Assembly: GCA_964620535.1 (NCBI GenBank)
Contig: CAZUHN010000237.1
Coordinates: 1-60,509 of the forward strand
Direction: 5' to 3'
Source of the DNA: an uncultured Nitrospinaceae bacterium
GTDB lineage: Bacteria; UBA8248
Length of the DNA stretch: 60,509 nucleotides
Part shown: positions 9,137 to 56,531 of the stretch, one piece after another
How positions within the stretch are numbered: the first letter of the stretch is position 1
How the letters are laid out: each line of letters begins with the position of its first letter
The notes under the pieces: model-generated
Told to the model about the DNA's origin: nothing
Databases searched by the model: none
Seen by the model: only the letters and a program-made list of their open reading frames with translations
Position numbers and translations under genes: made by a program

Positions 9137-9181
9137 TTATGGACGCAATCGCCTGTCGGTTATTTGTAATTTGGTGCATTC

Positions 9182-10240: not shown

Positions 10241-10261
10241 CTTTAAGAGGAGACGAACATC

Positions 10262-10771: not shown

Positions 10772-10790
10772 AAATCGGAGGAAAGAGTCG

Positions 10791-11093: not shown

Positions 11094-11100
11094 AAAAGGC

Positions 11101-13173: not shown

Positions 13174-13195
13174 CGGACGGTATTCGGAGGTTTCT

Positions 13196-14785: not shown

Positions 14786-14794
14786 GAATATGCG

Positions 14795-28027: not shown

Positions 28028-28051
28028 TTTTTCGCCGAGGAAACCGGCAAT

Positions 28052-29968: not shown

Positions 29969-30005
29969 CAGTTCCAGGAGTCCCGCCGATACCCGTTTCG
30001 GCGTT

Positions 30006-35527: not shown

Positions 35528-36853
35528 TTACGGAATATACGCCCAGAGGTCGAGCGCTACTGTCGCCCCCGAAACGGGCAGCGGGCAGTTGGCGTATTCG
35601 ACGATGGTATTTGCTGGTGGCTCGGTGCCGAATCTGTCATTCCAGATTTCAGAGCCCAGGCATAGCTCTTCAAAATCCGAAAAAAGAGTCTGGGTCCGGA
35701 CGATGTTGTCAAAACCCGATCCCCCAGCCGCCTGCACGATCTTCTCGGCGTTCCCGAGGATGTACGCCATCTGCTTGCGGATGCCTTTTTCATGCCAAGG
35801 GTAATTCGGATTGACCCGGCACGAATCGGGAAAATGCCCCTTTTCGTCAGCCGCGATGCCGGTGGAGAGGAATACCAGGTTTCCGGCCCTCACGGCGTGC
35901 GGTTCGTGGAGGGGCCATTTGGGAACCCCGCGCGCTTCAATCGTTTCAGATTTTATGCCGCTGTCCCGGGTGAGGGCGACGAAATTGATTTCGATCAGGC
36001 ATCTCTTCCCGCCGAGGCCGTCGGTGGGGGTGATGGTTCGCGCGGGCGGATTATTGGGGAAATACTCCTTCCAAATTTCGTCGAGCCTTCCCACTTCCCG
36101 CATTCCTTCGGCGGTGAGGTACACCTGGGCCTTGACGGTGAGGTCCAACGACGACCCGGCATCCTCCAGAATGATGGAGAGACGGTCGATCGTGAAGCGC
36201 GTTTGCAGCTCGAAATCGCTGCCGTACCAAAAATCCTTGTTCGTCTGGGCGGCGGGCGCGACGCCCTGGTTCCAGTCGGTCGGGATGTCGCCGGAGCAAA
36301 AAACGTAGGGTCCCACACGGATGGCATGACTGTAGCCTGCGGGCGCGTGGGAGATGCGCGGAGAGGTGATGGCCTCCTTCTTCCATTCGCTGTCGTTCGC
36401 GATCGCCACGAATTCGACCATGAAAATGGCGGATTTGACGGGAAGGTTGCTGCAGCGCATTCCGGTCGAGGCGGGTCTTCCGGCCGATTCCGGAATGTAG
36501 GCGTTCCGCACGATCCAGGCGTCCGTTACCGAGCTGATGTGGCCGGTGGGCGTATCCTCGAGAACGCCGAACCGGTCGGTGCGCACCGTATTTTCGAAGG
36601 AAGAGCCGCCCGCCTCCAGGATTTTTTTGATATGGGGATAAGTGTATTCGGTTTGGAGGCGGAGTTCGCTCAACTGGAGATCGGGACACAGCGGATCGCG
36701 CCTGGCTTCCGGAGGCAGGCCGTGTTCGGAAAAGTCCGTCGGGAGTTGTCCGGAGACAAAGACCCAAGGTCCCGCTTTGACGGCGGGCGAATAAGGGGTG
36801 GAAGGCATCGGTATTCCTTTCGGGACGATCGCTTGGCGAATCCGCTTTGCCAT
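35528..36853 (-). CDS. Three-domain RidA/YjgF/UK114-family protein
   Basis: Three RidA-like core motifs lie in one chain: YSPAVKAGPWVFVSGQ, YSHAIRVGPYVFCSGD and PHAVRAGNLVFLSTG. I chose the ATG at 36853, preceded by AAGGAG. Confidence 0.75.
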   Translation of the reverse strand: MAKRIRQAIVPKGIPMPSTPYSPAVKAGPWVFVSGQLPTDFSEHGLPPEARRDPLCPDLQLSELRLQTEYTYPHIKKILEAGGSSFENTVRTDRFGVLEDTPTGHISSVTDAWIVRNAYIPESAGRPASTGMRCSNLPVKSAIFMVEFVAIANDSEWKKEAITSPRISHAPAGYSHAIRVGPYVFCSGDIPTDWNQGVAPAAQTNKDFWYGSDFELQTRFTIDRLSIILEDAGSSLDLTVKAQVYLTAEGMREVGRLDEIWKEYFPNNPPARTITPTDGLGGKRCLIEINFVALTRDSGIKSETIEARGVPKWPLHEPHAVRAGNLVFLSTGIAADEKGHFPDSCRVNPNYPWHEKGIRKQMAYILGNAEKIVQAAGGSGFDNIVRTQTLFSDFEELCLGSEIWNDRFGTEPPANTIVEYANCPLPVSGATVALDLWAYIP

Positions 36854-37019
36854 TTTCTCGCTCTCCTTTGCCGGTCCACGTGGAAATAGGGAGAAAGGCT
36901 TTTCCGCAGCCCCTGCCGGTGCATTGTTCCAGCAGTTTTCTCCCGGCCTACAAATCACAGCGGATGAGGCGGTTCGCCAGCGGGGTCGAAAAACTTCAGC
37001 CTATCTTACTTTTTGAACC

Positions 37020-38309
37020 TCAATCCGCCGGCGCGTAAACCCAGAGATCCGCCATGACGGTGCAGCCTGGCGCCGGCATGGGTGCGGGGACGCGAATCGC
37101 GCCGTAGGGGATCGGATGATCCGGCAGGAACTCCTGCCAAACTTTGTGCACCGGGTAGAACTCACTCAAATCGGTGTGGAATTGGTGCGCGCGCAGGACG
37201 TTGCCGAGCGAAGTGCCGGCCGCTTGGCAGATGCATTGGGCCGCGTTGAGGATGTGGCGCATTTGACTCTGGGGACCTGCGCCGTGATAGGGCATGGCGG
37301 CCCCGACCTCGACGCCCGGTATCGGGCCGTCATCATCGGTGGCCATCAGCGCCGAAAGCAGCAGCAGGTCGCCGGCCCGAACGGCCGGCGGACCGTACGT
37401 CATGCTCGATGGAACGTCGCACAGGATAATTTCTTTCTTGACCGTTCCGGCATCCTTCACGGCCATGACGTTGATCTCGATGATGCCATCGGCCGTCCCG
37501 AATCCGGCTGTCGGAACCACGCTCAGGGCGCACGGATTTTCGCCGAACGCCGCGTTCCAGGTCTCCATGAACGGAGGAACGTCCTGGACGTTCGAGAGGT
37601 AGGCCTGGGCCTTGAGAACGTTCCCCAGGGAGGATCCCGCCGCTTCGAGGGCGGGGCCGATGAGTTCCCGCAGCATAAACTCGGTTTGCAAAATGATCTC
37701 GGTTCCGCCCCAAAGTTGTTTTTCGTGAACGTGCGCCGAGGGGTCTATCCCCGTGCTTCCTCCGTGGTGGGCCATCTGGCCCGCCATGAAGACGTAGTCC
37801 CCCGAGGTCACGGCCGGCACGAATCCCGAGGTGGGGGGTGCCTTCAGTTTCGCCCCCGAAACGCGCTGCACCTTCCGTCCGTCCCCGGGCATGACGGCGA
37901 GCATGGAGGCGTTGATTTCCGCGTCCCGGTGAAGAAGCTTGCTCATCATGACCGATGTGCTTGGTGGGATGAATTTTTTGAAAAACGCGCGCCGGGCGTA
38001 ATGATAGGGGTCGACGGGTTTCCAGGTGGGGTAGTACTGATCCAGCCGGACCGCGTGGGTGGGGTCGGTGCCCGCCTCGGCGAGCAAATCTTGGAAGCGG
38101 TGGAGGATGAAATCGCCCTCGCGGCGGCGCTTCGGGGCGCCGTGGAAAGGAAGCCCCGGTTTACCGAGGACCTCGGGCGCGAGGCCGGTTTCGAAGTTTG
38201 TGGCCTCATGGCCTGTGAGAAACACCCAGTTGCCGCCCTTCATGCCTTGTGCGTAGAAAACGTCCGTACCGGCGATTTTGACGGGAGAAAGCGGTTGCAC
38301 GCGGCTCAT
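37020..38309 (-). CDS. Three-domain RidA/YjgF/UK114-family protein (paralog)
   Basis: Same architecture as the neighbour: GGNWVFLTGH, FVPAVTSGDYVFMAGQ and PPAVRAGDLLLLSAL. 429 aa. Confidence 0.72.
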   Translation of the reverse strand: MSRVQPLSPVKIAGTDVFYAQGMKGGNWVFLTGHEATNFETGLAPEVLGKPGLPFHGAPKRRREGDFILHRFQDLLAEAGTDPTHAVRLDQYYPTWKPVDPYHYARRAFFKKFIPPSTSVMMSKLLHRDAEINASMLAVMPGDGRKVQRVSGAKLKAPPTSGFVPAVTSGDYVFMAGQMAHHGGSTGIDPSAHVHEKQLWGGTEIILQTEFMLRELIGPALEAAGSSLGNVLKAQAYLSNVQDVPPFMETWNAAFGENPCALSVVPTAGFGTADGIIEINVMAVKDAGTVKKEIILCDVPSSMTYGPPAVRAGDLLLLSALMATDDDGPIPGVEVGAAMPYHGAGPQSQMRHILNAAQCICQAAGTSLGNVLRAHQFHTDLSEFYPVHKVWQEFLPDHPIPYGAIRVPAPMPAPGCTVMADLWVYAPAD

Positions 38310-42632: not shown

Positions 42633-43793
42633 TTACCTTTCATCGCCGGCCGGCTGGCTTTCCGCCAGTCTCGATACTTTCTCCCGCAGGGTCCTGTGGC
42701 TGCCGCACCCCACAAGGGTTTTTCTTCGATTCTGAACCCGGGCGAGGTGGTCCTTTCCCAAAAAGTTCCGGGCCGGTTCAGCGAATTCGGCTTTCGCGGC
42801 AAGGATTCGCCCCAGAGATTGCTTTTCGGCCCCGGGAGATAGGATTTTGCCCCGGGCGGCCTGGGCGATGCGGGTCCAAGCGCGCTCCCCGACCTCCTCG
42901 CTGTGGCAGATGAGGACGATGTCCGCCCCGGCCAAAACTCCCGAAAGGGCCCCCTCGACCGGGTCTACGATCGCCCCCATGTCCAAGTCGTCTGTGATGG
43001 CGAGTCCCCGGTGGCCCAGCTCCTCACGGAGCAAATCGCGGGAAAACTTGGAGGAAAGGCTGGCCGGGCGTTCGGGGTCGATCTTCGAAAATACGGCGTG
43101 CGCAGTCATGATCCCGGCGGATACGCCGTCCGGCGGGCTCGGGTTAACCGCCTGTCGGAAGGGTGTGAACTCCCGCGTTATAAGGGTTTCCAGGGTGAGA
43201 TCGCTCACGGGCAGGGTTTCGTGCGGATCGGGCGCCATGTCTCCGATGCCGGGAAAGTGTTTGGCCACGGCAGCCACCCCCCCGGCCTGGAGCCCGGCAA
43301 TGGCGGCGGCGCCCATCCCGCCGACAAACGCGGGGTCCTTCCCGTAAGCGCGGTCCCCGATGACGGTACAATTCGGGTTGGTCAGCAGATCGAGGACGGG
43401 CGCCATGTTCATGTTGATGCCCACGCAACGAAGCTCCACGCCGGTGACGCGGGCGGCTTCCCGGACCAGGTCTCGGTCCCCGATTCGGCCGAGGGCGGCG
43501 GCCGGGGGAAACTGCGTGAAATCATCGGAGAGCCGGCCCACGCCCCCCCCCTCTTCGTCGATTGCTATTAGAAGGGGAACCCCCCTCGGGGATTGGGCGG
43601 CGGCGCGCTGGAGCGAATGGGTGAGAAGGAGGGTTTGTTCCGCGTTCTCGATATTTCTTTCAAAGAGGATGACGCCGCCCACCCTTCCCTCGTGGATCCG
43701 CTCCAGCGTCGAGAGAGAGGCCGAGGTTCCGGAAAAGCCCACCATGAGGTGCTGTCCGACGATTTCCTCCGGCGTCCAATCGTTCAGGGTCAT
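42633..43793 (-). CDS. nagZ: Beta-N-acetylhexosaminidase NagZ (GH3)
   Basis: GQHLMVGFSG, IDEEGGGVGRL, KHFPGIGD and AITDDLDMGA are GH3/NagZ motifs. I chose the ATG at 43793 (MTLNDW). Confidence 0.88.
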   Translation of the reverse strand: MTLNDWTPEEIVGQHLMVGFSGTSASLSTLERIHEGRVGGVILFERNIENAEQTLLLTHSLQRAAAQSPRGVPLLIAIDEEGGGVGRLSDDFTQFPPAAALGRIGDRDLVREAARVTGVELRCVGINMNMAPVLDLLTNPNCTVIGDRAYGKDPAFVGGMGAAAIAGLQAGGVAAVAKHFPGIGDMAPDPHETLPVSDLTLETLITREFTPFRQAVNPSPPDGVSAGIMTAHAVFSKIDPERPASLSSKFSRDLLREELGHRGLAITDDLDMGAIVDPVEGALSGVLAGADIVLICHSEEVGERAWTRIAQAARGKILSPGAEKQSLGRILAAKAEFAEPARNFLGKDHLARVQNRRKTLVGCGSHRTLREKVSRLAESQPAGDER

Positions 43794-43818
43794 TGGTTTC
43801 GCCCGCGGGGGGAGGCGT

Positions 43819-44508
43819 TCAACGCATGCGCGTAATGGTGAAGGCTTCCGCCATCGGAAGGCTGACCATCCGGCCGAAGTTGCGGGCTCGATCGCGGACC
43901 CGCTTTTCGGTCCCGGACGGGTTGGTGATCTGGCTTTTGTGCTTTTTGATGGCGGCCATTTTTTTGTTGAAAGTGTACGAGATGTCAACGAAGAAGTTGG
44001 GTTCGAGGCTTTGGCCGTAAAGCAATGTGTTCGTGTGGTGGGTTTTGATGCCGGCATGGGTCAGCTCGGGCAGGAAATGATGGTCTCGAGCGTAGACGAT
44101 GCCCTTGAATGTCGCGTGGCCGACGGCCCGGTGATCGGGGTGTTGGTAGTAGGGGCGGTGGGGGTCGTGGGTAACGATAGTATCGGGCTTGTAGTGGCGG
44201 ATGAGAAAGGCGAGCTGATTGCGGAACGCCCGGTTGTCCTCGAGTTCACCGTCGCGGTGGCGGAGCAAGATAGTTTCCTTCACGCCGAGGTACTTGGAGG
44301 CGGCGAGCTGTTCGGCCTCGCGGAGGCCGGCGAGTTGATATGGCGAGAGGTGGTACTTCTTTGTTCCCTTGTCCCCGTTGGTGCAGAGCACGGTTCGCAC
44401 TAGGGCGCCTTTTCCCACCCAGCAGGCGATGCTCCCGCCCGCCCCGAGCTCTGCGTCATCCGGATGGGCGATGATGACCATGATGTTTTGGAATTCCGCG
44501 GGATTCAA
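43819..44508 (-). CDS. PIG-L/LmbE-family N-acetylglucosaminide deacetylase (MshB/BshB-like)
   Basis: VIIAHPDDAELGAGG and HPDHRAVG are the Zn-binding motifs. The TTG at 44508 overlaps the upstream TGA (TTGA); the ATG at 44484 is an alternative start. Confidence 0.85.
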   Translation of the reverse strand: MNPAEFQNIMVIIAHPDDAELGAGGSIACWVGKGALVRTVLCTNGDKGTKKYHLSPYQLAGLREAEQLAASKYLGVKETILLRHRDGELEDNRAFRNQLAFLIRHYKPDTIVTHDPHRPYYQHPDHRAVGHATFKGIVYARDHHFLPELTHAGIKTHHTNTLLYGQSLEPNFFVDISYTFNKKMAAIKKHKSQITNPSGTEKRVRDRARNFGRMVSLPMAEAFTITRMR

Positions 44509-45896
44509 ATGCCGCTTCCTCCCACGCAGGCAAGAGTCTCGGCGGCGGGGTGCTCCTCGTTGGGAGAGAATCCGGCGTTCAGGAACACGGGCGGGGGGGC
44601 GCTCCGCTGGGGTATCAGGCGCTTCCAGATGGCGAGCTCGCGGGCGGCGACGGCGGCCCACGGGAAGGCCCGGGCGCGCTCGCGGGCTTGTTGCCCCACG
44701 CGCTTGCGCGCGCCCGACGCCTCGAGCATCCAGAGGAGCGCCTCAGTGAAGGCGCCGATGTTCCCGTCGGGAACCAGCTGGCCGCTCACGCCCGTCTCGA
44801 TGGAGTGGGAGAGCCCGCCCACGTCGAAGGCAACCGCGGGAAGGCCGCACGCAGCCGACTCGAGGGCGACCAGGCCGAAGGTCTCATAGCGGGAGGGGAT
44901 GGCCAGGGCGTCGGCCGCCGAGTAATAACGGGGAAGTTCCTCTTGGAGTTTGGCGCCCACGAAGGCGAACTCGCTCACCCCCTTCTCTTGCGCCATGCGC
45001 AGGATGCGCCGTACCTCGGCCCGCTGGAGGGATGAGGTGAAAGCCTCGGGACCGAGGCCGGCCGAGGGGGGGCGCCCGTTTCCGTTGCGCACCGCGCCCC
45101 CGACGTGGATCGCCCGGAGGGGAAGGCCCGGCCGGAGCGCCTTGAGGTGGGCGATGACCTCGATGAGGCGGTCGAGCCCCTTCACCGGCTCGACCCTTCC
45201 CACCGAGAGGATGAGGATATCTTCTTTTTTCACCCCCAGCGCGGCGCGGGCGGCCTCCCTCGGAACGGACGCGAAACGCTCCAGGTCGACCCCGCAGGGC
45301 ACGACGTGGATGCGGCTTTCCTCCGCTTCGAGATCGCCGCGCAGCATCTCGGCCTCGGCGGCGGAGGAGGCGAACAGCGCCTCCGCCTTCTGGGCGAGTC
45401 CGCCTTCGGCGAAGATCCGGCTGCTGGACTCGTGTCCGTTCAGGGAGGGGAGAGATCGGTTTTTCTGCAGGCCCAGGGTGTGGAAGCGGATGGCGAGCGG
45501 AACGCCCCATCTGCGGGCCAGGAGCGAGCCCGCGACCCCGGAGAGCCAATAGTGGGCCGATATAATGTTGTAGCGCGTCCCTTGCCGGGCGGCGAAGGCT
45601 TCGATTCCCTCGGCGAAGGGGCCGGTCAAGGGGAAGAGGTCGTCTTTGTGGAGGTCCCGGCGGGGACCCGCCGGTATCTGGGCCATGCGCGCCCCCGGGG
45701 CGATCTCCATCAGGTCCGGCGCACCCTCCTCGCTCATGCGGGTGAACACGTCTACCCGAGCGCCCTGCCGGGAAAAGGCCCGGGCAAGCTCGCGGACGTA
45801 GACGTTCATCCCCCCCGCCACGTCCCCTCCGAGGGGGGCGAGCGGGTCGGTGTGCATCGAGAGGAGGGCGGCATGGAAGGCCGTATCAGATTTCAT
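44505..45896 (-). CDS. GT4 glycosyltransferase, MshA-like
   Basis: The N-terminus LLSMHTDPLAPLGGDVAGGMNVYVRELARAFSRQGARVDVFTR closely resembles the MshA signature (S-HTSPL--PG-GD-GGMNVY). The C-terminal half has ETFGLVALESAACGLPAVA (the GT4 EX7E region). Confidence 0.85.
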   Translation of the reverse strand: MKSDTAFHAALLSMHTDPLAPLGGDVAGGMNVYVRELARAFSRQGARVDVFTRMSEEGAPDLMEIAPGARMAQIPAGPRRDLHKDDLFPLTGPFAEGIEAFAARQGTRYNIISAHYWLSGVAGSLLARRWGVPLAIRFHTLGLQKNRSLPSLNGHESSSRIFAEGGLAQKAEALFASSAAEAEMLRGDLEAEESRIHVVPCGVDLERFASVPREAARAALGVKKEDILILSVGRVEPVKGLDRLIEVIAHLKALRPGLPLRAIHVGGAVRNGNGRPPSAGLGPEAFTSSLQRAEVRRILRMAQEKGVSEFAFVGAKLQEELPRYYSAADALAIPSRYETFGLVALESAACGLPAVAFDVGGLSHSIETGVSGQLVPDGNIGAFTEALLWMLEASGARKRVGQQARERARAFPWAAVAARELAIWKRLIPQRSAPPPVFLNAGFSPNEEHPAAETLACVGGSGI

Positions 45897-46981
45897 CCCT
45901 CCTCCCGCTTCAGCCGGACCCGCATGATGAACTCGTTTTCCGCTCCGTAGCGGTACTTGTATTTTTCGTCCCCGCGGAGCATGTCGAAGGCCTTCCGGCC
46001 CCTCTGGATGGCTTCCTCGAGGTTCTGGACGATGAGGACGAGTCCGCCGCTGAGCGCGCGCTCTCCCGGGTCGAACCCCGAGTTGTACAGGTAGATTCTG
46101 TCATCGAAATCGAAGGAGAAGTTGACGGCGACGGGGTGATCGTCCACCCGCATGATGGTCAGATCTAGCCAGCCAAGCTTGAGCATCCCGCGCGCCATCT
46201 CCCGGAAGAATCCGCGGCGCCCTTCGTTCCAGAAATCCGCCTTATCCGGATGGCTGAGAGCGTGGAGATGAAAGAAAACCTCGATGTCCTCTTCGAGTTG
46301 GGCGGGGGTAAGGGTGCGATGAAACTCCAGGCCGGGCTCCATGCGCGCCTTGCGCACCTTCCGCCGCATCTCGCGCTCATTGCGGGGGGAGAGCGTGCCG
46401 AGATATTCTTCCACCGAATCAGGAAGGGAGACCACCGGGCACACCTCCTCCCGCGCGACCTCCACTCTTCCTCGGGCAGGACCACTCGCTTCCGAGAGGA
46501 CTCGGACGGTGGGGGAATCTTCCGGGACGCAGTGCAGATCGAGCGCCCGCCAATCGGGCGCTCCGGGCCCTTCCAGGTGGGCGAGCAGCGCCCGCCAGGC
46601 GGCGGGATGGTTGCCTTCGGCGGCGACGATATCGAGATAGTCGGTCACATCCTCCCCCCCGGTGAAGCGGAGCGTGCCGTCTCCGCCGAGGGTCCAAGGA
46701 GCTACGGCGAGAAGGGAGCTGTCTTCCCGGCGCACGGCGCAGATATAGAGGGTGCCCGTTCCGAGGTGGGACCACCAAGCGTGATGCCAGGCGGGATCGA
46801 AAAAGGGATGCCGGGGCGAGGCGTTCTCGAGAAGGGCGTGCCACTCCGGGGCCAGTTGAAGGATGTCCCCGGGCCCCTTGTGAACAGTGACGAGGAGGCC
46901 TCCTTCCACCGGTTCACCCTCCGGGGTGTCGGCTTGTTGGACGGAGGCGGGATTCGGGGCGGGAAGACAGCTTAATTTCAT
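45893..46981 (-). CDS. CelD/FemAB-like GNAT-fold acyltransferase (Acetyltransf_6 type)
   Basis: The C-terminal FDMLRGDEKYKYRYGA and YLYNSGFDP are typical of the CelD/BioF2-like GNAT family. The ATG at 46981 follows GAGGAG. Confidence 0.75.
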   Translation of the reverse strand: MKLSCLPAPNPASVQQADTPEGEPVEGGLLVTVHKGPGDILQLAPEWHALLENASPRHPFFDPAWHHAWWSHLGTGTLYICAVRREDSSLLAVAPWTLGGDGTLRFTGGEDVTDYLDIVAAEGNHPAAWRALLAHLEGPGAPDWRALDLHCVPEDSPTVRVLSEASGPARGRVEVAREEVCPVVSLPDSVEEYLGTLSPRNEREMRRKVRKARMEPGLEFHRTLTPAQLEEDIEVFFHLHALSHPDKADFWNEGRRGFFREMARGMLKLGWLDLTIMRVDDHPVAVNFSFDFDDRIYLYNSGFDPGERALSGGLVLIVQNLEEAIQRGRKAFDMLRGDEKYKYRYGAENEFIMRVRLKREEG

Positions 46982-47097
46982 TCCGGCTCCTCTTGGGACC
47001 TCTTGCTCTATTCGCGTCGGGCTTCGCGGAATCCTCCCGAAAAACCCAAAATAATGAACTGAGGCGCGCGGGTCCGTCAACGCCCCTCCGCCTTCGG

Positions 47098-47607
47098 CTA
47101 CCGCACGAAAACAGCCGAGGGGTGGCCCTCCAGCGGTGGGGGGAGTTCGGACCGCGGAAAACCGAAATAGCGACTGAATTTCAGGGTTTGAAAATGGACG
47201 AATCCCGCCTTGGTTATCCCCCTCCGCGAGGCGGTGTTTTCGGAGTCAACGAAAATCATGGCCCGGCTCAGGTCCAATCCCTGGGCGTATTCCAGCGCGC
47301 TCCGGAGAACGGCAGGATAGAGATTGTTCCCCCGCCAGGGGGCGAGCGTGAAGGCGTCGTACAGGTATATCTCGGCCGGGCCGGGCTGGACACTCATGTT
47401 GATCTCCTCGACCCCGACGATGCCGCGCGCCCCCCAAATGTAGCTTACGATCCCCCCCTCGTGCAGGGCGGCGAAGCACTTCTCTCCTCTTTCGAACCGG
47501 GATGAAGTGAGAAAATCACCCTCAACTTCCGCGATGAGATTGGAGTCGTCCGAGGCGCGGTCCAATACGTGAAGCTCCGTCTCGATGCGGCTTTCGGCCG
47601 GGGGCAT
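47098..47607 (-). CDS. GNAT-family N-acetyltransferase
   Basis: About 170 aa with the GNAT core YLYDAFTLAPWRGNNLYPAVLRSALEYA and ASRRGITKAGF. I chose the ATG at 47607, downstream of the upstream gene's stop. Confidence 0.7.
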   Translation of the reverse strand: MPPAESRIETELHVLDRASDDSNLIAEVEGDFLTSSRFERGEKCFAALHEGGIVSYIWGARGIVGVEEINMSVQPGPAEIYLYDAFTLAPWRGNNLYPAVLRSALEYAQGLDLSRAMIFVDSENTASRRGITKAGFVHFQTLKFSRYFGFPRSELPPPLEGHPSAVFVR

Positions 47608-47675
47608 AGCATTCGATAAAATGTGATCGTAAAGGCATAGTTCGATCTTTCTGAAGAAAAAAGAAAAAAGGAGGC

Positions 47676-48740
47676 TCAATCCGTGATTTCTCCCAGGGCG
47701 GTTTCGAGCGCGTCGAGGTAGGGCGCGAGTCGATCCGCCAGGTCCTCCGTGCCGGGAAGGGCGGCAAGGTGGCACTGGATGTGGGCGAGGGCGGGGGGAA
47801 TGTGGCGCAGGTACCTTGATGTACCGTGGGCCGTCTTCTGATGCGCGAAAGTGCCAATCGCCTTGAGGTTGCGCTGGAGGGCGGTCCAGGAAAGACGGGT
47901 CCGGAAGGTTTCAGCATCCGCAACGGCGGCGATTCCGGTTCGATCTATAAACCGCGTGATGAGCTCTTCGCGGAGGGAATCGGGCAGTGATACGTAGCTG
48001 TCGAAAACCAGAGAAGCGAGGTCGTAGGCGGCGGGACCGAGCCGGGCGTCCTGGAAGTCGAGCACGGTGAGATTGCCCCCTCCCCGTACCATGAGGTTCC
48101 GACTGTGGTAGTCCCGGTGGGTGAGGCGGAAGGGTTGGGAGCAGACAGCGCGGGCGAGGGCGCCGAAGGATTCATCAAAATCGCTTTTCCCGGCCGCCAT
48201 CTCCAATAGTTCGCCGAAGGCGTATTTCTGGGTGTGGTGTAGCTCCCGGACGAAGACGGCCTCGTCGAAGGCGTACCGCAGAGCCAGATGCGGAGAGGCG
48301 GGGTCCGGCGATTCCGCTCCCGCTTGGATGCTCGCCAGAAGGTCCACCGCTTCGAGATAATAGGGGCGAGCCCCTTCCCTTCCCTCCCTCTCCCAGAGCG
48401 CTTCGAGAGAAACCTCTCCCGCATCTTCGAGGAGGAGAACCCCGCAGGCCGGATCCGCCTCATAAAGGTGCGGGACGGGGGCGCCGATGATTTCGAAGTG
48501 GTTTCTAACGTTCAAGAAAGGGAGTTCGCCATCCGCAAAGGGTGCGGCGAGGATCATTCCAACGGAGGTGGGCGGAGCCGCGTCCGGATGATGGAGCCGG
48601 GCGTAGCGCCGGTCCGACGCGTCATCCGCAAGAGGGATGAGATCAGTCACCTCCACCCCGAAACGCGCCCGAACAAGCTTCCGCAGGCAGCCGATTACTT
48701 GGGAGTCGAATATCCCGGTTTCCGTCCCCGCCGGGATCAT
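47676..48740 (-). CDS. Aminoglycoside-phosphotransferase-fold kinase, AmgK (anomeric MurNAc/GlcNAc kinase)-like
   Basis: DDASDRRYARL, LTHRDYHSRNLMV (catalytic loop) and VLDFQDARLGPAAYDLASLV resemble AmgK-type sugar kinases. Confidence 0.72.
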   Translation of the reverse strand: MIPAGTETGIFDSQVIGCLRKLVRARFGVEVTDLIPLADDASDRRYARLHHPDAAPPTSVGMILAAPFADGELPFLNVRNHFEIIGAPVPHLYEADPACGVLLLEDAGEVSLEALWEREGREGARPYYLEAVDLLASIQAGAESPDPASPHLALRYAFDEAVFVRELHHTQKYAFGELLEMAAGKSDFDESFGALARAVCSQPFRLTHRDYHSRNLMVRGGGNLTVLDFQDARLGPAAYDLASLVFDSYVSLPDSLREELITRFIDRTGIAAVADAETFRTRLSWTALQRNLKAIGTFAHQKTAHGTSRYLRHIPPALAHIQCHLAALPGTEDLADRLAPYLDALETALGEITD

Positions 48741-49624
48741 ATTTTTCTCCTTCCCGCATACACACCGGGGGCGCGGGCGAGACAGGACAAGGTTTCGGAG
48801 TAGGTTTTTTCTTCCTTCCGGCGGATTTCAAAGGACCGGGGCCCCGAAAATCCGGCCTCCTCCAGCGATTCCCAAAGCGCGTTCCAGGGAAGGGCTCCCT
48901 CTCCCGGGATCAGGTGGCCGTCCTGTTTGCCGTCGTTGTCGTGCAAGTGGACGGCGGCGGCGAGAGGGACGAGGCGACGGAAGGCGGCGGCGGTCCGAGT
49001 TCCCTCCGTGAGAAGGGCATGGCCGGTGTCGAGGCACGCCCGCACCCGGGGGTGCGCGCACCCTTCCACAAACTGCGCTACGGCCTCCGGTCTTCCCAGC
49101 GGGGCCGGGACGTTTTCGATAGCGAGCACCATGTCCGCTTTCTCGGCGAAGGGGAGCAGCGCTTCCACGCTTTCGCGGAGATTTTCGAGTGCATCCTCCG
49201 ACCCCGATGGTGGCGGGCCGCCCGGATGGAGCACGGCGACCCGGGCGCCGAGGCCGCCGAAGGCCCTCATGGCGGTTTCGGTGCGCGCGACCGCCTCATG
49301 GCGGTGCGCCGAATCGGGGTGGGCAAAGCTGAGCCACTCCCCGGCGCGGGCCCTTTCAAAGTCACGGTAAAAGGGGGCGTGAAAGCTCACCGCTTCAAGG
49401 GAAAGAGAGTCCAGCCACTCCTTCAGCCGGGAAAGAGCCGGCCCTTCGGCCGCGTCGAAGTGGGGGGTCATCGCCCACAGTTCGAGGCGGTGGAAGCCCG
49501 CCTCGGCGACCGCCCGCAGGTGGCCGAAGGCGAGGGGCTCGCGCGCGAAAATGTGGGCGGAGATGCAAAACGGCGAAGTCAATGCGCAACCTTTTGGAGA
49601 AAAAAAGAGGGGGCCGGGCATCAA
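48737..49624 (-). CDS. Xylose-isomerase-like TIM-barrel protein (sugar phosphate isomerase/epimerase family)
   Basis: GFHRLELW, VAVLHPG, LAIENV, DTGHA and HLHDNDG are the typical AP_endonuc_2 / IolE-IolI-like metal-site pattern. Confidence 0.8.
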   Translation of the reverse strand: MMPGPLFFSPKGCALTSPFCISAHIFAREPLAFGHLRAVAEAGFHRLELWAMTPHFDAAEGPALSRLKEWLDSLSLEAVSFHAPFYRDFERARAGEWLSFAHPDSAHRHEAVARTETAMRAFGGLGARVAVLHPGGPPPSGSEDALENLRESVEALLPFAEKADMVLAIENVPAPLGRPEAVAQFVEGCAHPRVRACLDTGHALLTEGTRTAAAFRRLVPLAAAVHLHDNDGKQDGHLIPGEGALPWNALWESLEEAGFSGPRSFEIRRKEEKTYSETLSCLARAPGVYAGRRKI

Positions 49625-49743
49625 GTGGTCAATGACACACCCTTAAAACGCTTGAAATTATACGGCCCGCCCATAGGGCTGGCAATGCAGGGCGAAGGTC
49701 TACCCGAGAAGGCGAGGATGCCGGAATTTCTCCGATGATTTCA

Positions 49744-49773
49744 TTGACATACTCCACTCCTCTTCCCTAATAT
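49744..49773 (+). promoter_or_regulatory. Sigma-70-like promoter upstream of the FadR-type regulator
   Basis: TTGACA (49744-49749), an 18-nt spacer, then TAATAT (49768-49773). Confidence 0.5.
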
Positions 49774-49969: not shown

Positions 49970-50742
49970 TTGCTCCGCCCGGTAAAGCGCACTCGCCTCT
50001 ACGAGGATGTGGTCGCCCAAATCCAGCGCCTCGTTCGAACGAAAAAGCTGCCCCCGGGCGATCGGCTCCCCTCCGAGCGCGAGCTCGCGGCGGCCCTAGG
50101 GATTGGGCGCACCTCAGTCCGCGAGGCGCTCCGGACCTTGGACAGCATGGGCCTCATCGAGGTGCGGAGCGGCCAGGGCGCGTTTCTCTGCAACATCGGC
50201 CTCGACCCTTACCTTGCCACCATCCGGGAAAGCCTCTCCTTTTTGCTCGACGTAAAAGAGGAGTCCCTCGTGGAGCTGTGGGAGGTCCGCCAGGGGCTCG
50301 AGGAGCAGATCGCCCCGCTCGCGGCGCGGCGCCGCGAAGAGCCGCATCTCGCAAAGCTCCGCCGCCTCACCAAAGAGATGGGGAGGGCCTCGACGGCCCG
50401 GACACCGTTGTCCGCTCCGGGATTTCCTTCCACCGTACTCTGGCTGAGGCGGCGGGAAACGCGGTTCTCCTGACGGTTTGGGAGGCCATCGCCGGCCTCA
50501 TTGAAAAGAGCCAGCGCCGCATCGTGGGCATTCCCGGCCAGGCGGTCCAGGCCCTCGCCAAGCACGAGGCCCTGCTTCGCGCCGTCGAAGAGGGGGACGG
50601 CGCGGCGGCGCGGCGCGCCATGCAGGCGCACATGGAGGCCGAGGGGGACCATCTGCGCGTGTCCCTCGCGCTGCAAGGAAAAGAGGAGAAAAACGGGGAG
50701 GGAATGATAGAAAAAGAGAAGAAAGAAGCCAGAACGGCGTAA
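49970..50742 (+). pseudogene. GntR/FadR-family transcriptional regulator interrupted by a frameshift
   Basis: The N-terminal wHTH (LPSERELAAALGIGRTSVREALRTLDSMGLIEVRSGQGAFL) and the start of the FCD domain are in frame 49970. The rest of the FCD domain (ISFHRTLAEAAGNAVLL...ALAKHEALLRAVEEGD...AMQAHM) continues in the frame of ORF 50278..50742. The switch is near the G-runs at 50380-50387. Confidence 0.7.
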
Positions 50743-50839: not shown

Positions 50840-52171
50840 ATGCAACAGGGTATTCCGTTGGATTTTCTGCAGAAGGAGCACTACCAGTCGCCCCGGCGCG
50901 TTTACAGCCAGACAGGGAGCGACTGGCAGCGGCGCGTCGACTTCGATCGGCTCCGGAATGACCGCCTCCAGCGCGCCAAGGACATGATGGAAAAGCACGA
51001 CATGGACGCCATCATCATGTTCAAGGGCGAGAACATCCGCTACACCTGCTCGGTCTATCAGGGAAACTGGAAGAACAATATCTTCATCCGCTACGCCGTC
51101 CTTTGCCGAGGGGCGAAGACCCCGGTTCTCTTCGAGACGGCGGGCTCGGACTTGGAGTGCGCCAAGATCGACGCGCCCTGGCTCGAAGGCAACATCCGCC
51201 CGGCCATCACTTGGAAGTGGTCGGAAACGGCTGAGCAGATGATGGTCAACCGCATGGTCGATTCGGTTATCGACGTCCTCAAGGAAGGCAACATTCCCCT
51301 CGACGGGCGGATCGGCATCGACATCATGGACTTCCAGGCTTATTCGGCCTTCACCGAAAAAGGAGTGAACCTCATCAACGCCTGGCCGGCGATGAGCGAG
51401 GCGCGCGTCGTCAAGACCCCCGAGGAGATCGAGCTTCTCAAGATCAGCTCCACCGTGGGTGACACCTGCATGTGGAAAATCCGGCACGAGTGGCTCAAGC
51501 CGGGCATCCGCGAGTGCGACATCACCGCCTGGGTGAACGAGCTGCTCTTCGCGGAGGGATTCGACTTCGTCTACGACATCATCGTTGCCTCGGGCGGGAA
51601 CACCAGCCCGTACCGCCGGTGGCACACCGACAAGATGATCCGCAACGGCGACCTCTTGGTCGTGGATATCAACGCCATCGGCCCCGGCGGCTATTTTGTC
51701 GATTACGTGCGCTGCTTCAAGGTGGGTGGAGACTGGACCAAGCGCGAAAAGAAGCTCTACCGCGAGGTGTACGACTCGATGTACGCCGGCCTGGAGCAAC
51801 TCAAGCCTGGCAAGACCTCGGAGGACGTCGCTTCGAAGTTCCCGCCCTACGCCGACGACAAATACGGCACCGTCACCCTCCAGCAGTTCGCCCACTCCAT
51901 CGGGCTTGACCTTTATGAGGGTATGTGGATCAGCCGGGCCTACAGCCTGGACTATCCGGCCGAGATCAAGGAGAACATGTACTTTGCCATCGAGACCTTC
52001 GCCGGCCATCCCGGCCTCCCGCAGACGGTGCGCCTTGAGGAGAACGTCCTCGTGGGGCCGGACGGCCCGATCGTCTTCACCGGGGCCGAGCACTACGACG
52101 AGTGCATCCAGGATTCGCAGTGGTTCGACTTCTCGGCGAAGTCCCGCGGCGAAGGAAGGGATGACGATTAG
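50840..52171 (+). CDS. M24-family metallohydrolase (creatinase/Xaa-Pro peptidase-like)
   Basis: An N-terminal creatinase/prolidase-like domain (MDAIIMFKGENIRYT) is followed by a pita-bread domain (DLLVVDINAIGPGGYFVDYVR, HSIGLDLYE, FAIETF). Confidence 0.8.
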   Translation: MQQGIPLDFLQKEHYQSPRRVYSQTGSDWQRRVDFDRLRNDRLQRAKDMMEKHDMDAIIMFKGENIRYTCSVYQGNWKNNIFIRYAVLCRGAKTPVLFETAGSDLECAKIDAPWLEGNIRPAITWKWSETAEQMMVNRMVDSVIDVLKEGNIPLDGRIGIDIMDFQAYSAFTEKGVNLINAWPAMSEARVVKTPEEIELLKISSTVGDTCMWKIRHEWLKPGIRECDITAWVNELLFAEGFDFVYDIIVASGGNTSPYRRWHTDKMIRNGDLLVVDINAIGPGGYFVDYVRCFKVGGDWTKREKKLYREVYDSMYAGLEQLKPGKTSEDVASKFPPYADDKYGTVTLQQFAHSIGLDLYEGMWISRAYSLDYPAEIKENMYFAIETFAGHPGLPQTVRLEENVLVGPDGPIVFTGAEHYDECIQDSQWFDFSAKSRGEGRDDD

Positions 52172-52302
52172 CGCAACTTCCCCCGCGACGCCGGCCGGAG
52201 CGCGGGCCGGGGGGGGGAATTTGGACGAGATCTTTCACACCCGATCCCTCGGCGGCGCGGCGCCCCCGCGGGACGGGCCAGCCCCAGGAAGGAGAAAGGG
52301 CG

Positions 52303-53523
52303 ATGAGCGAGCCCTGGAACACCGAGATGTGGTTTACCAGTCCCTGGAACTTCGACGGCGAAGTCCGGAAGCAGGTGAAGTTCGATCCGAACCCCCGGTT
52401 CCACGACGTGACCCTTCGGGACGGGGAGCAGCAAGCCGGAGTCATTTTCAGCAAGGACGACAAAATTAGAATCGCCGAGGCCTTGGCCGAGGTGGGGATC
52501 CACCGCATCGAGGCCGGCATGCCCGTCGTCTCGAAGTCTGACGAGGCGGCCATCCGGGAGATCGTCAAGCGCCTCGAGGGATCGGACACCCAGGTTTTCA
52601 GCTTTGCCCGCTGCATGGCGGACGACGTGAAGCGCTCCCTGGACACCGGCGTGAAGGGAATCGTGATGGAGGTGCCGAGTTCGACCCACATCATCGAGCG
52701 CGCCTACAAATGGGATCTCAACAAGGCCATCGACACCTCGGTGAAGGCCACCCAGTTCGCCAAGGAGAACGGCCTCTACGTCGTCTTCTTCCCCATCGAC
52801 TTCTCGCGCGCCCCGCTCGAATGGGTGCTGGACATGCTGAACAAGGTGGCGATCGAGGGGCACATGGACGCCCTCGCCATCGTGGACACCTTCGGCGGCC
52901 TCGCCCCCCACACCGTCGCCCACCTCATTAAGAAGATGCGCGAGGTGTTCCCGGACACCCCCTTCGAGCCCCACTTCCACGATGACTATGGAATGGGGGT
53001 GGCCAACACCCTCCTGGCAATGGCGGCGGGCTGCCAGGTGGCCCACACCTCGATCTCCGGCCTCGGCGAGCGGGCGGGCAACTGCGCCTACGAAGAGCTC
53101 GCCCTCGCCATGAGGACCATGTACGACGTGGACCCGGGGCTGAAGACGGAAAAGTTCGTCGAGGTCTCGCGGCTTACCCTTCAGATCGCGGGCGTCACAG
53201 TGGCCCCGAACCGCTGCGTTGTCGGGGAGGAGCTCTACGACATCGAGAGCGGCATCATCGTGAGCTGGCTCAAGAACGCGGGCAAGGATTTTCCTACCGA
53301 GCTCGTCCCCTTCTGCGCCGGCCTGGTGGGCCAGCGGGAGCCGCGCCCGGTCATCGGAAAAGGGAGCGGGATCGATTCCATCGCCTGGTTCCTCGAAGAG
53401 CTCGGGATCAAGGCTTCCCAAGAGGAGATGATGGCCCTCCTGCAGGACGTGAAGGAAAAATCCCTGGGCGAGAAGCGTCTCCTCAGCCTGGACGAGTTCA
53501 AGGAGTTGGCCGGGGCGAAGTAA
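52303..53523 (+). CDS. HMGL-like pyruvate carboxyltransferase-domain enzyme (isopropylmalate/homocitrate synthase family)
   Basis: FHDVTLRDGEQQAGVIF, HRIEAGMP, EPHFHDDYGMGVANTLLA and HTSISGLGERAGN are DRE-TIM metallolyase motifs. Confidence 0.85.
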   Translation: MSEPWNTEMWFTSPWNFDGEVRKQVKFDPNPRFHDVTLRDGEQQAGVIFSKDDKIRIAEALAEVGIHRIEAGMPVVSKSDEAAIREIVKRLEGSDTQVFSFARCMADDVKRSLDTGVKGIVMEVPSSTHIIERAYKWDLNKAIDTSVKATQFAKENGLYVVFFPIDFSRAPLEWVLDMLNKVAIEGHMDALAIVDTFGGLAPHTVAHLIKKMREVFPDTPFEPHFHDDYGMGVANTLLAMAAGCQVAHTSISGLGERAGNCAYEELALAMRTMYDVDPGLKTEKFVEVSRLTLQIAGVTVAPNRCVVGEELYDIESGIIVSWLKNAGKDFPTELVPFCAGLVGQREPRPVIGKGSGIDSIAWFLEELGIKASQEEMMALLQDVKEKSLGEKRLLSLDEFKELAGAK

Positions 53524-54512: not shown

Positions 54513-55547
54513 ATGAAAGCCGCTCTTCTCGAAGCGCCCCGCAGGATGACGGTGGGCTCCCAGCCGGATCCGGCCCTTCCGGCCGGGCACGTCCTCGTGA
54601 AGGCGGCGGCCACCGCCATCTGCGGAACGGACGTCTCCATCTGGGCAGGCAAAATGCCCTCGTGCATGCCCCTGATCCCCGGCCACGAGTGTACCGGTGT
54701 CGTGGAGGATGCGGGCGGGGGCGTCTCCCTTTTAAAAAAAGGCGACCGGGTGCTCCTGAACCCCCTCGTCGCTTGCGGCACATGCCGCTACTGCCAGCGG
54801 GGGTTGATCAACCTGTGCTTGAATGGCGGCCTCCGCGGCCGTGAGGTGCCGGGCACCTTCGCCGAGTACAGCGTCGTCCACGAGACCGAGGCCTTCGTCA
54901 TTCCGGAGAACGTGAGCTTCGGGGGGGCGACGAATCTCGTCGGTCTCGCTACAGTGGTCTATTCCCAGCGCAAGGCGCCCTATATCCCCGGCGGGTGCGT
55001 CGCGATCCTGGGACAGGGGAACACTGGGCTGCTCCACACCCAGTTCGCTAAGGCATCGGGCGCGGCTTCGGTCATCGCCGTAACCCGGAGCAGGTGGAAG
55101 CTCGAGATGGCCCAGAAGATGGGGGCGGACCACATCGTCCCCGCCGGCGAGGAGAGCCCCGTCGAGGCCGTTCTCGGCCTGACAGAGGGCCTGGGCGCCC
55201 AGGTGGTGATTGAGACGGCGGGCTCGGCCGAGACCATGCGCCAGGCGCACGCGATGGTGCGCCCTGGCGGAGCGATCCTCCAATTCGGAATCGGCCCCGC
55301 CGCGGTGGACGGCATGCCCGGCCAAACCTACTACTTCAAGGACCTCACCGTCATCGGATCGCGTGCGTGCCTTGCTGAGGACTTCGAGCGCGCCGTCGAG
55401 ATCGTGGCGAAAGGACTGGTCGACATGGAGCCCATCGTGACCCACCGCTTCCCCCTGGAGGCCATCCAAGAAGGGTTCGAGTTCATCGAGGGCGGCGGGG
55501 ACGGCAGCACCCTGCGGGCGGTGGTGGGTATCAACGAGGCCGCCTGA
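54513..55547 (+). CDS. Zn-dependent alcohol dehydrogenase (MDR family, sorbitol/threonine DH-like)
   Basis: CGTDVSIWAG...PGHECTGVV is the catalytic Zn site, CGTCRYCQRGLINLC the structural Zn site, and ILGQGNTG the Rossmann motif. Confidence 0.88.
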   Translation: MKAALLEAPRRMTVGSQPDPALPAGHVLVKAAATAICGTDVSIWAGKMPSCMPLIPGHECTGVVEDAGGGVSLLKKGDRVLLNPLVACGTCRYCQRGLINLCLNGGLRGREVPGTFAEYSVVHETEAFVIPENVSFGGATNLVGLATVVYSQRKAPYIPGGCVAILGQGNTGLLHTQFAKASGAASVIAVTRSRWKLEMAQKMGADHIVPAGEESPVEAVLGLTEGLGAQVVIETAGSAETMRQAHAMVRPGGAILQFGIGPAAVDGMPGQTYYFKDLTVIGSRACLAEDFERAVEIVAKGLVDMEPIVTHRFPLEAIQEGFEFIEGGGDGSTLRAVVGINEAA

Positions 55548-55586
55548 TTCGGCGAGCGGGTACTTTTGCAAGGGCGGAGAAGGATT

Positions 55587-56438: not shown

Positions 56439-56531
56439 CCGGCCGGGCCGGGCACGCGGCAAGCGGCGGGAGACCGGGCGAAAAAGAAAGGCCCGGTAAA
56501 AGTGGAGGAAAACCCGTTGGCCGGCAAGACC

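Follow-up and report, generated by a model that had tools for sequence, protein, structure and literature searches.

A seven-gene operon of a Nitrospinaceae bacterium with a candidate Fem-type transferase may encode an aminoacyl-glucosaminide pathway

The stretch of DNA analyzed here (the window) is the 60,509-nucleotide contig CAZUHN010000237.1 from the assembly GCA_964620535.1 of an uncultured Nitrospinaceae bacterium. At positions 42633-49624 it carries an operon of seven co-directional, translationally coupled open reading frames (ORFs) on the minus strand, which is the subject of this report. A preliminary description of the DNA had reported seven minus-strand genes with three 4-nt start/stop overlaps and had read them as a possible mycothiol-like glycoside pathway. 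The genes, with the domain content described, and all three overlaps (ATGA at 48737-48740 and 45893-45896; TTGA at 44505-44508) were found, together with a fourth at 47676-47679 (TTGA), where the kinase stop meets the GNAT start. The starts of the GNAT, AT6, PIG-L, GH3 and TIM-barrel genes were revised from homologues, the earlier starts being those of the longest ORFs. The name AT6 is used here for the PF13480 (Acetyltransf_6) protein. The genes are as follows:

48737-49582, minus strand: gene 1, AP_endonuc_2 TIM barrel, 281 aa; alternative TTG start at 49624
47676-48740, minus strand: gene 2, APH-fold AmgK-like kinase, 354 aa; ATGA start overlapping the gene 1 stop
47098-47679, minus strand: gene 3, small single-domain GNAT, 193 aa; TTGA start overlapping the kinase stop
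45893-46981, minus strand: gene 4, AT6, a PF13480 Acetyltransf_6 tandem GNAT assigned to the Fem type, 362 aa
44505-45896, minus strand: gene 5, predicted retaining GT4 of the MshA/SPS type (SPS, sucrose-phosphate synthase), 463 aa; ATGA start overlapping the AT6 stop
43819-44508, minus strand: gene 6, PIG-L/LmbE zinc deacetylase, 229 aa; TTGA start overlapping the GT4 stop
42633-43793, minus strand: gene 7, GH3 beta-N-acetylhexosaminidase NagZ, 386 aa

Membrane segments were predicted in none of the seven proteins. Taken together, the operon may specify a soluble cytoplasmic pathway to an N-aminoacyl-alpha-D-glucosaminide of a small acceptor. We hold it about an even call that such a pathway, following the logic of mycothiol and bacillithiol synthesis and using AT6 as a tRNA-dependent transferase, is what these genes encode.

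Conservation of the operon and its core

Seventy-eight species-level loci with an AT6 gene were fetched, and their six-frame ORFs were searched with hidden Markov models (HMMs) built for the seven proteins. The following arrangements were found:

All seven genes, colinear: 33 of 78 loci
Seven-gene type, broken by contig ends or frame problems: 3 of 78
GNAT-AT6-GT4-PIG-L only: 2 of 78 (L058 and L059, divergent Nitrospinota)
AT6-GT4-PIG-L: 9 of 78
AT6-GT4-PIG-L-GH3: 1 of 78
AT6-GT4: 19 of 78, many of which end soon after GT4
AT6-PIG-L: 1 of 78
AT6 alone: 10 of 78

AT6 is followed downstream by GT4, in the same orientation and order, in 66 of these 78 loci. The seven-gene arrangement exceeds chance. 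What has stayed stable in evolution is AT6 followed by GT4 and, in many cases, by PIG-L. The four other genes (TIM barrel, kinase, GNAT and NagZ) were added in the Nitrospinota/Tectomicrobia-type lineage; among them, the GNAT is tied to the core because the two divergent Nitrospinota loci retain only GNAT-AT6-GT4-PIG-L. The preliminary description had made its proposal depend on the operon members occurring together outside the source genome, and the 33 complete colinear blocks show that they do. Its general logic, in which N-acetylglucosamine (GlcNAc) transfer is followed by N-deacetylation and then by N-acylation, also fits the conserved AT6-GT4-PIG-L core.

The nearest GT4 and AT6 homologues belong to Nitrospinota, Candidatus Tectomicrobia and further metagenome-assembled genomes (MAGs) of 3-4.5 Mb, and one 3.68 Mb MAG chromosome and two ENA contigs share ~93 % DNA identity with the window over the operon. 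At E <= 1e-30, the relatives of AT6 form 488 clusters (50 % identity), and roughly 489 species were found to have AT6 relatives. Core-only loci were found in Chloroflexota (Chloroflexia, Anaerolineae, Dehalococcoidia and SAR202), Thermodesulfobacteriota, 'Deltaproteobacteria' and one Nitrospiraceae MAG, and the AT6-GT4 pair also occurs on Thermomicrobiales-like and Methylomirabilota contigs. These core-only loci lie amid housekeeping genes. In an all-against-all clustering, their recurrent neighbours were all lineage-specific (for example, AzlC/AzlD/MFS in Chloroflexia), and the recurrent neighbour families included no aminoacyl-tRNA synthetase paralogue, disulfide reductase or inositol gene.

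The core enzymes: GT4, PIG-L and AT6

The GT4 carries SMHTDPLAPLGGDVAGGMNVYV...VDVFTR, a segment that the preliminary description had placed very close to MshA. The likeness stands insofar as MshA (TIGR03449) is the best curated model and is matched over the full length of the protein; it falls short in that the window GT4 scores 302.7 bits against an equivalog cutoff of 462.5, and SPS is about equally near. Eight further AT6-linked GT4s from several phyla likewise have MshA as their best curated model (269-411 bits), and CgMshA itself, used as a control, scores 717 bits. Among solved structures, the GT4 gives a near tie between CgMshA (216 bits) and the SPS of Thermosynechococcus elongatus (TeSPS; 198 bits), with identities of 30-41 % to MshA and 30-39 % to SPS. 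Scores against the SPS model TIGR02472 (94 bits, cutoff 576) and against BshA (76 bits) were low. A neighbour-joining tree of the GT4s, for which CgMshA and TeSPS were the sole references, had internal branches too short to settle the three-way relation, and the placement given here rests on HMM scores.

Residue conservation gives a more detailed picture of the predicted GT4 pocket. CgMshA residues N25, K78, Y110, H133, T134, R154, R231, K236, E316 and E324, which we take to be binders of the acceptor phosphate, inositol and UDP and mostly shared with SPS, are all present in the window GT4 and are kept in 70-72 of 72 AT6-linked GT4s. Those of them that contact the acceptor phosphate are kept in 71-72 of the 72; K78, Y110, T134 and R154 of CgMshA reportedly hold the phosphate of inositol phosphate. 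In SPS, the phosphate of sucrose-6-phosphate is bound by the equivalent residues R105 and R178 (PMC7264703). Judged by its sequence, the GT4 is a retaining MshA/SPS-type enzyme for a small phosphorylated acceptor that lies outside the MshA equivalog. The label 'D-inositol-3-phosphate glycosyltransferase' is probably misleading for AT6-linked GT4s, as is 'CelD/BcsL family acetyltransferase' for AT6. Relative to CgMshA and TeSPS, the GT4 also has an insertion of ~20 residues, VRNGNGRPPSAGLGPEAFTSSLQRAEV, at residues ~267-300 (window 44970-45060), common to the aligned Nitrospinota-type homologues.

The sixth gene product belongs to the PIG-L superfamily (PF02585, 4.3e-31; 108.5 bits against a cutoff of 28.2), and its translation carries the AHPDD and HPDH zinc/catalytic motifs by which it had been described as an MshB/BshB-type deacetylase. 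The motifs are there, and the assignment to a type did not survive: BshB1, the best NCBIfam model, reached 103 bits (cutoff 182.5), BshB2 80 bits (cutoff 195) and MshB 48 bits (cutoff 224). Among solved proteins, it is nearer to the archaeal diacetylchitobiose deacetylase (Dac; 104-117 bits) and to LnmX (94 bits) than to BshB-type enzymes (41-53 bits) or MshB (40 bits). From sequence, this profile fits a deacetylase of GlcNAc-O-R and carries little information on R.

AT6 matches PF13480 (E = 1.3e-28) and no other Pfam family; membership in FemAB (PF02388) was not found for the window protein. Its AlphaFold2 model (pLDDT 93.8) was compared with the PDB using Foldseek, and the top matches were Sbb17/Sba18 with streptothrisamine (9wqx, 9wqw and 9wqy), at 16-18 % identity to AT6. 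Other top matches were Weissella FemX, including its peptidyl-RNA complexes, S. aureus FemX and FemA, and the aminoacyl-phosphatidylglycerol synthase domain of MprF. These best matches are all aminoacyl-tRNA-dependent enzymes (E 1e-12 to 1e-9; template modeling score, TM, 0.55-0.73; root-mean-square deviation, rmsd, 4-5 A). Acetyl-CoA-dependent tandem GNATs, such as VipF and the clavulanic-acid tandem GNAT, fit worse (TM 0.35-0.5, rmsd 7-9 A). Against PDB sequences, a profile built from 58 AT6 family members matched FemX and Sba18 alone, at a borderline E of ~0.3-0.7, and a four-sequence profile gave chance matches only. Secondary Pfam matches among the same 58 members were to FemAB_like (28/58), FemAB (9/58, weak) and ATE_C, the C-terminal domain of Arg-tRNA protein transferase (2/58), and 5/58 weakly matched Acetyltransf_1.

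Two sequence features of AT6 may correspond to features of the Fem class. The family motif DFLRGxExYKYRFG contains Y341, kept in 50/58 members, and K342, kept in 57/58, and residues 200-211 form a conserved K/R-rich basic helix. Enzymes of the Fem class have a catalytic Lys that follows a Phe (F304-K305 in FemX, F328-K329 in DhpH-C) and a tRNA-binding helix (PMC12945691). By sequence comparison, Y341-K342 of AT6 is a putative parallel of the FemX and DhpH-C pairs, and the basic helix a putative parallel of the tRNA-binding helix. In the glycylthricin pathway, Orf11 uses Gly-tRNA to convert streptothrisamine, a deacetylated amino sugar, into glycylthricin (PMC12945691). By its predicted fold, AT6 is a member of the Fem-type tandem GNATs, and the earlier label of 'CelD/FemAB-like GNAT' was replaced accordingly. 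The suggestion that a CelD/FemAB-like enzyme performs the acylation is sharpened by these matches: AT6 is predicted to fold as an aminoacyl-tRNA-dependent Fem-type enzyme, and its best matches aminoacylate the amine of an amino sugar. On the modeled structure, AT6 is a candidate aminoacyl-tRNA-dependent Fem-type transferase acting on the freed amine of glucosamine (GlcN). The AT6 relatives P0313 (809 aa), P0385 (895 aa) and P0422 (794 aa) were considered as GT4 fusions, a reading that was rejected; they are AT6-AT6 tandems with two PF13480 modules each, an architecture reminiscent of successive Fem-type additions.

An alternative that bears directly on AT6, and that corresponds to the version in the preliminary description, is that the enzyme uses an acyl-CoA and that the product is an N-acyl glucosaminide, such as a compatible solute or small glycoconjugate. 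Pfam names the AT6 family an acetyltransferase (GNAT) family, a few members match Acetyltransf_1, VipF and the clavulanic-acid enzyme do appear in the fold search, and the annotated neighbourhoods hold no dedicated tRNA or aminoacyl-tRNA synthetase gene. The better fit of the tRNA-dependent enzymes, the predominance of FemAB_like, FemAB and ATE_C among the secondary sequence matches, and the apparent agreement of the Tyr-Lys motif and basic helix with the Fem class (PMC12945691) all count on the other side, and acyl-CoA dependence appears rather unlikely. The tRNA-dependent reading of AT6 is retained in what follows.

Accessory genes, regulation and surroundings

The TIM barrel had been described as IolE/IolI-like, a description that was rejected. 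The protein matches PF01261 (4.8e-40, Pfam), and no IolE or IolI match was obtained at E <= 0.01; fructoselysine 3-epimerase and IolO reached 30 and 22 bits. The best NCBIfam match is the CbiR phosphodiesterase, at 58.4 bits under a cutoff of 105, and no cobamide genes lie near the operon. The best PDB match is the uncharacterized protein MJ1311 (3wqo). In the ketose epimerases and isomerases of this superfamily, metal ligands number only about four. E. coli endonuclease IV (Nfo) has nine, of which eight align in the TIM barrel and are retained by 40-42 of 42 family members; the ninth position is an invariant His in the sequence HAPF. In the superfamily, one to three metals have been seen, and CbiR retains conserved His, Asp and Glu ligands (PMC7733943). 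Because its metal-ligand set is of the endonuclease-IV/CbiR type and IolE/IolI matches are absent, the TIM barrel is read, from sequence, as probably a metal-dependent phosphoesterase. With the loss of the IolE/IolI assignment, the cyclitol conjugate suggested in the preliminary description loses its sole support within the operon.

A second phosphoesterase-type gene was found beside the core in another lineage. In the Methylomirabilota locus L086, a PF01663 type-I phosphodiesterase/nucleotide pyrophosphatase (12239-13474, plus strand) begins 2 nt after AT6-GT4; in the window, no phosphoesterase lies 3' of GT4, and the TIM barrel instead heads the operon. As unrelated phosphoesterase-type genes are thus linked to GT4, dephosphorylation after glycosylation is supported.

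The small GNAT gives weak Pfam matches to Acetyltransf_3 and Acetyltransf_1. A Foldseek search with its AlphaFold2 model (pLDDT 93.4) returned generic acetyl-CoA GNATs (VipF and MAB_4324), with MshD (1ozp) at rank 12 and a GlcN N-acetyltransferase at rank 33, and no Fem-type enzyme among the 50 listed matches. The search does not separate an MshD-like role from a GlcN-acetylating one. Going by the modeled fold, the protein is probably an acetyl-CoA-dependent N-acetyltransferase. Its family comprises 49 clusters, all within the Nitrospinota/Tectomicrobia-type lineage.

The kinase belongs to PF01636 (3.3e-18) and matches the PDB entry 3csv at 108 bits. AmgK is its best curated family, with scores well below the cutoffs of both models (NF045759, 119 bits against 550; a second model, 61 against 500), and the operon holds no MurU-like nucleotidyltransferase. 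NagZ, with matches to PF00933 (2e-63) and to NF003740 at 211 bits, passes its equivalog cutoff of 207, and the NagZ motif KHFPGxG...DxH is present as KHFPGIGDMAPDPH. The substrate of NagZ is beta-linked GlcNAc. Both genes are absent where only the core genes are kept, and together they look like a lineage-specific module for GlcNAc supply.

These two genes are the starting point for a different reading, raised as an alternative in the preliminary description, in which the operon serves mainly the recycling or tailoring of peptidoglycan amino sugars: NagZ, the kinase and the Dac-like deacetylase would act on muropeptide GlcNAc, and the Fem-type enzyme and GT4 would modify a wall precursor, for example with a branch amino acid. 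The NagZ score above its cutoff, the AmgK family as the best match of the kinase and the proximity of PIG-L to diacetylchitobiose deacetylase agree with this proposal, and the acceptors of classical Fem enzymes are peptidoglycan precursors (PMC12945691). Against it stand the accessory status of NagZ and the kinase, neither of which occurs in loci with the core AT6-GT4(-PIG-L) alone, the low AmgK score, the lack of a MurU-like partner, and a retaining GT4 whose MshA/SPS-type pocket suits a small phosphorylated acceptor. The recycling idea is best kept as an accessory supply function, and as an account of the operon as a whole we consider it improbable. The aminoacyl-glucosaminide pathway would accommodate both genes as probable suppliers.

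Upstream of the operon and within it, the following regulatory features were found:

49657-49685, minus strand: sigma-70-like promoter TTGCCA-17-TATAAT, upstream of gene 1 (11/12 matches; a consensus match only)
47051-47080, minus strand: weak, speculative promoter-like site in the 116-nt gap between GNAT and AT6 (9/12 matches)
49970-50727, plus strand: gene for a regulator with GntR and FCD domains, divergent from the operon
49744-49773: promoter-like site for the divergent regulator

In all, the region holds five promoter-like sites, where 1.3 +/- 1.1 would be expected. The divergent arrangement of the GntR/FCD gene is kept in L001-L004, and this regulator probably controls the operon. In the window, the gene is split by a frameshift near 50380: a tblastn comparison with an intact 257-aa homologue places aa 1-137 and 139-253 in different frames at 95 % identity. 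The gene is either a pseudogene, in which case the operon is possibly derepressed, or interrupted by an assembly indel. An Rfam search gave no match in or near the operon, and a terminator scan of the region gave no signal above background.

Several genes accompany the operon in its immediate relatives. An M24 peptidase (creatinase/prolidase-like), an HMGL-like enzyme, two zinc alcohol dehydrogenases and a bicupin lie beside the regulator at 50840-53523 and 54513-57575 (plus strand) and their synteny with the operon is preserved across Nitrospinota, Tectomicrobia and related MAGs (L001-L005); a functional link to the operon, such as turnover of its product, is possible. On the other side, at 35528-36958 and 37020-38309 (minus strand), two proteins of 429-476 aa (longest ORFs) each have two to three RidA/L-PSP domains, an unusual architecture, and the synteny of these genes is kept in L001 and L002. 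Selenium-related genes at 17655-18662 and 26783-31463 (minus strand) encode a SelD-like AIR-synthase-family protein, a class-V aminotransferase, SelB and SelA, and SelA and SelB are also found near the operon in L004 and L005. Farther away, two runs of complex I genes that include several NuoL/M/N-type subunits, together with genes for an ATP-citrate-lyase-like ATP-grasp subunit and a chlorite-dismutase-like protein (1278-16312 and 19446-20720, plus strand; 24478-25344, minus strand) fit a Nitrospinota-like nitrite oxidizer with a reductive tricarboxylic acid cycle. An ATP-grasp L-amino-acid ligase (ATP-grasp_4 and LAL_C2; 58787-60025, minus strand) lies ~9 kb from the operon with no evident link to it.

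Other associations were seen at core-only loci and around more distant AT6 relatives. A radical-SAM/SPASM protein is encoded upstream of AT6-GT4(-PIG-L) in L048, L050, L051, L054, L055, L064, L065 and L067, which are loci of Thermodesulfobacteriota/'Deltaproteobacteria', the Nitrospiraceae MAG (L050) and the MAG of L048. In Anaerolineae-type loci (L044, L060, L073, L075-L077 and L083), AT6 relatives that lack a GT4 are preceded, with an overlap of a few bases, by a conserved protein of ~360 aa without a Pfam match. In L087, a PF13480 relative with ~32 % identity (5874-8134, plus strand) is translationally coupled to a different GT4 within a Wzx/Wzy/Wzz polysaccharide cluster, and the wider PF13480 family is therefore not limited to an MshA-like context.

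This last cluster bears on a further reading, in which the operon is an exopolysaccharide or surface glycan cluster with GT4 as a polymer glycosyltransferase and PIG-L as a polymer deacetylase. It is also suggested by the label 'CelD/BcsL family acetyltransferase involved in cellulose biosynthesis', which JGI applies to AT6 relatives and for which a literature search found no biochemical basis. A surface polymer is hard to reconcile with the lack of a flippase, polymerase, priming transferase or exporter in the operon and its conserved neighbourhood, with seven proteins free of predicted membrane segments, with an MshA/SPS-like GT4 that keeps phosphate-binding residues, and with core-only loci set amid housekeeping genes; this reading is very improbable.

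The proposed pathway and its relation to known systems

In the aminoacyl-glucosaminide pathway proposed here, GT4 would first transfer GlcNAc from UDP-GlcNAc to a phosphorylated small acceptor, giving GlcNAc-alpha-X-P, with both donor and acceptor assigned by analogy. In the Nitrospinota-type lineage, the TIM barrel would then probably remove the acceptor phosphate in the manner of MshA2 or sucrose-phosphate phosphatase (SPP). In the third step, PIG-L would free the 2-amine by N-deacetylation of the presumed glycoside. AT6 would next move an amino acid from an aminoacyl-tRNA to the GlcN amine, replacing the ATP-dependent MshC or BshC; the use of a tRNA donor and the nature of the amino acid are both conjectural. 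Lastly, the small GNAT, again in the Nitrospinota-type lineage, would probably N-acetylate the new amino group, as MshD does. NagZ and the AmgK-like kinase would probably channel GlcNAc from cell-wall turnover through GlcNAc-1-P to UDP-GlcNAc; alternatively, the kinase may make the phosphorylated acceptor X-P. How the second and third steps are ordered, and what each of the four accessory genes does, is likewise conjectural.

The preliminary description had asked whether such a pathway might operate without a Cys ligase. A Pfam scan of 47 window ORFs found no ino1, mshC or bshC, and the question can be sharpened in that AT6 is a candidate replacement that could perform the MshC/BshC step by different chemistry. 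If cysteine were the amino acid, which we hold at low confidence, the AT6-GT4-PIG-L set could make a low-molecular-weight thiol by a third route, one that depends on tRNA: the Fem-type enzyme and Cys-tRNA would give Cys-GlcN-X, acetylated by the GNAT in Nitrospinota. This thiol route is offered as a tentative extension of the pathway, with a similarly low estimate of its own. If it holds, Cys-GlcN-X would be an analogue of mycothiol and bacillithiol, or mycothiol itself made with a non-orthologous ligase, and would be the main redox buffer of marine nitrite oxidizers, Tectomicrobia, and many Chloroflexota, Thermodesulfobacteriota and Methylomirabilota.

A number of observations weigh against the proposed pathway. 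The likeness of AT6 to Fem-type enzymes is at the level of the fold, with 9-18 % identity and TM ~0.6, and K342 is a putative equivalent of FemX K305. The GT4 is about as close to SPS as to MshA, and a UDP-glucose donor would be compatible with the GT4 evidence taken alone. The nearest solved relative of PIG-L is a catabolic chitobiose deacetylase, and PIG-L adjoins AT6-GT4 in only about one third of core-only loci, partly owing to contig ends. Neither an aminoacyl-tRNA synthetase paralogue nor a thiol-handling gene was found in the annotated neighbourhoods or the recurrent neighbour families, and more distant PF13480 relatives occur in Wzx/Wzy polysaccharide clusters. NagZ has no direct role in the core chemistry because it cleaves beta-linked rather than alpha-linked GlcNAc. 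Finally, we infer the substrate of every step. An orthologous mycothiol or bacillithiol pathway, with true MshA/MshB or BshA/BshB and a ligase encoded elsewhere in the genome, is the least probable of the readings, as the shared MshA motifs and the best matches to MshA and BshB1 come with scores far under the cutoffs (GT4, 303 against 462.5 bits, with the CgMshA control at 717; PIG-L, 103 against 182.5 bits, and 40-53 bits to solved BshB and MshB) and msh or bsh loci show nothing comparable to the tight coupling to AT6 seen across phyla.

To our knowledge, only two GlcN-based redox cofactors have been described, mycothiol and bacillithiol, and they differ in the ligation step: MshC is a paralogue of cysteinyl-tRNA synthetase (CysRS), and BshC is still poorly understood. 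If the proposed pathway is correct, a Fem-type tRNA-dependent ligase working with an MshA-like GT4 and a PIG-L deacetylase would be a third solution to this step, found in poorly studied phyla, and would give Fem-type enzymes a role in primary metabolism beyond the cell wall, lipids and antibiotics. It would also point to an abundant new metabolite, which could be a thiol, a solute or a different aminoacyl-glucosaminide cofactor, in carriers that include globally important marine nitrite oxidizers. A literature search found no published description of the AT6-GT4-PIG-L set or of the seven-gene operon. By sequence tests, the components fall within PIG-L, GT4, NagZ and PF13480 and outside MshA, MshB, BshB, MshC, BshC, AmgK, CbiR and IolE/IolI.

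Among known systems, mycothiol synthesis in Actinobacteria (MshA, MshA2, MshB, MshC and MshD) shares with the proposed pathway the order of its chemistry: a retaining GT4, phosphate removal, PIG-L, addition of an amino acid and a GNAT. The GT4 has its best curated match in the MshA model and retains the MshA residues that contact the acceptor phosphate. In contrast to mycothiol synthesis, the GT4 and PIG-L lie under the equivalog cutoffs, a Fem-type and probably tRNA-dependent transferase stands in place of the CysRS-like MshC, the GNAT is a single 193-aa domain whereas MshD is a tandem protein, and the carriers are Nitrospinota, Tectomicrobia, Chloroflexota and others. Bacillithiol synthesis (BshA, BshB and BshC) likewise proceeds through a GT4 and a PIG-L enzyme to the addition of an amino acid to GlcN, and BshB1 is the best NCBIfam model for PIG-L. 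However, BshA uses malate, which carries no phosphate, whereas the operon GT4 keeps a phosphate-binding set and scores 76 bits against BshA; PIG-L is well under the BshB cutoffs, and the operon has no BshC homologue.

Comparison with SPS/SPP solute pathways, in which a phosphate ester is glycosylated and then dephosphorylated, brings out the score of 198 bits to the SPS of T. elongatus, two shared basic acceptor-phosphate residues and the phosphoesterase-type gene linked to GT4. Unlike in those pathways, a deacetylase and a Fem-type transferase are present, for which sucrose synthesis has no role, and the score against TIGR02472 is 94 bits where 576 are required. NagZ/AmgK (MurU) salvage resembles the operon in a NagZ above its cutoff and an AmgK-like kinase that also matches 3csv; it differs in that the kinase is far under the AmgK cutoff, MurU is missing and both genes occur only in the Nitrospinota-type cluster.

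FemABX/MurM and the aminoacyl-phosphatidylglycerol synthases (the MprF C-domain) share with AT6 the tandem-GNAT fold, a putatively equivalent aromatic-Lys motif and weak FemAB/FemAB_like cross-matches. They act on UDP-MurNAc-pentapeptide, lipid II or a membrane lipid, whereas AT6 lacks a membrane domain and is coupled instead with a soluble GT4 and with a deacetylase. The BD-12/glycylthricin pathway (Orf11, Sba18 and Sbb17) belongs to actinomycete antibiotic clusters, with another sugar and aglycone, while AT6 is found in housekeeping-like contexts in several phyla. This pathway nevertheless supplies the best structural matches to AT6 and transfers an amino acid from an aminoacyl-tRNA to the amine of a deacetylated amino sugar (PMC12945691), and its late steps resemble the scheme proposed for the operon.

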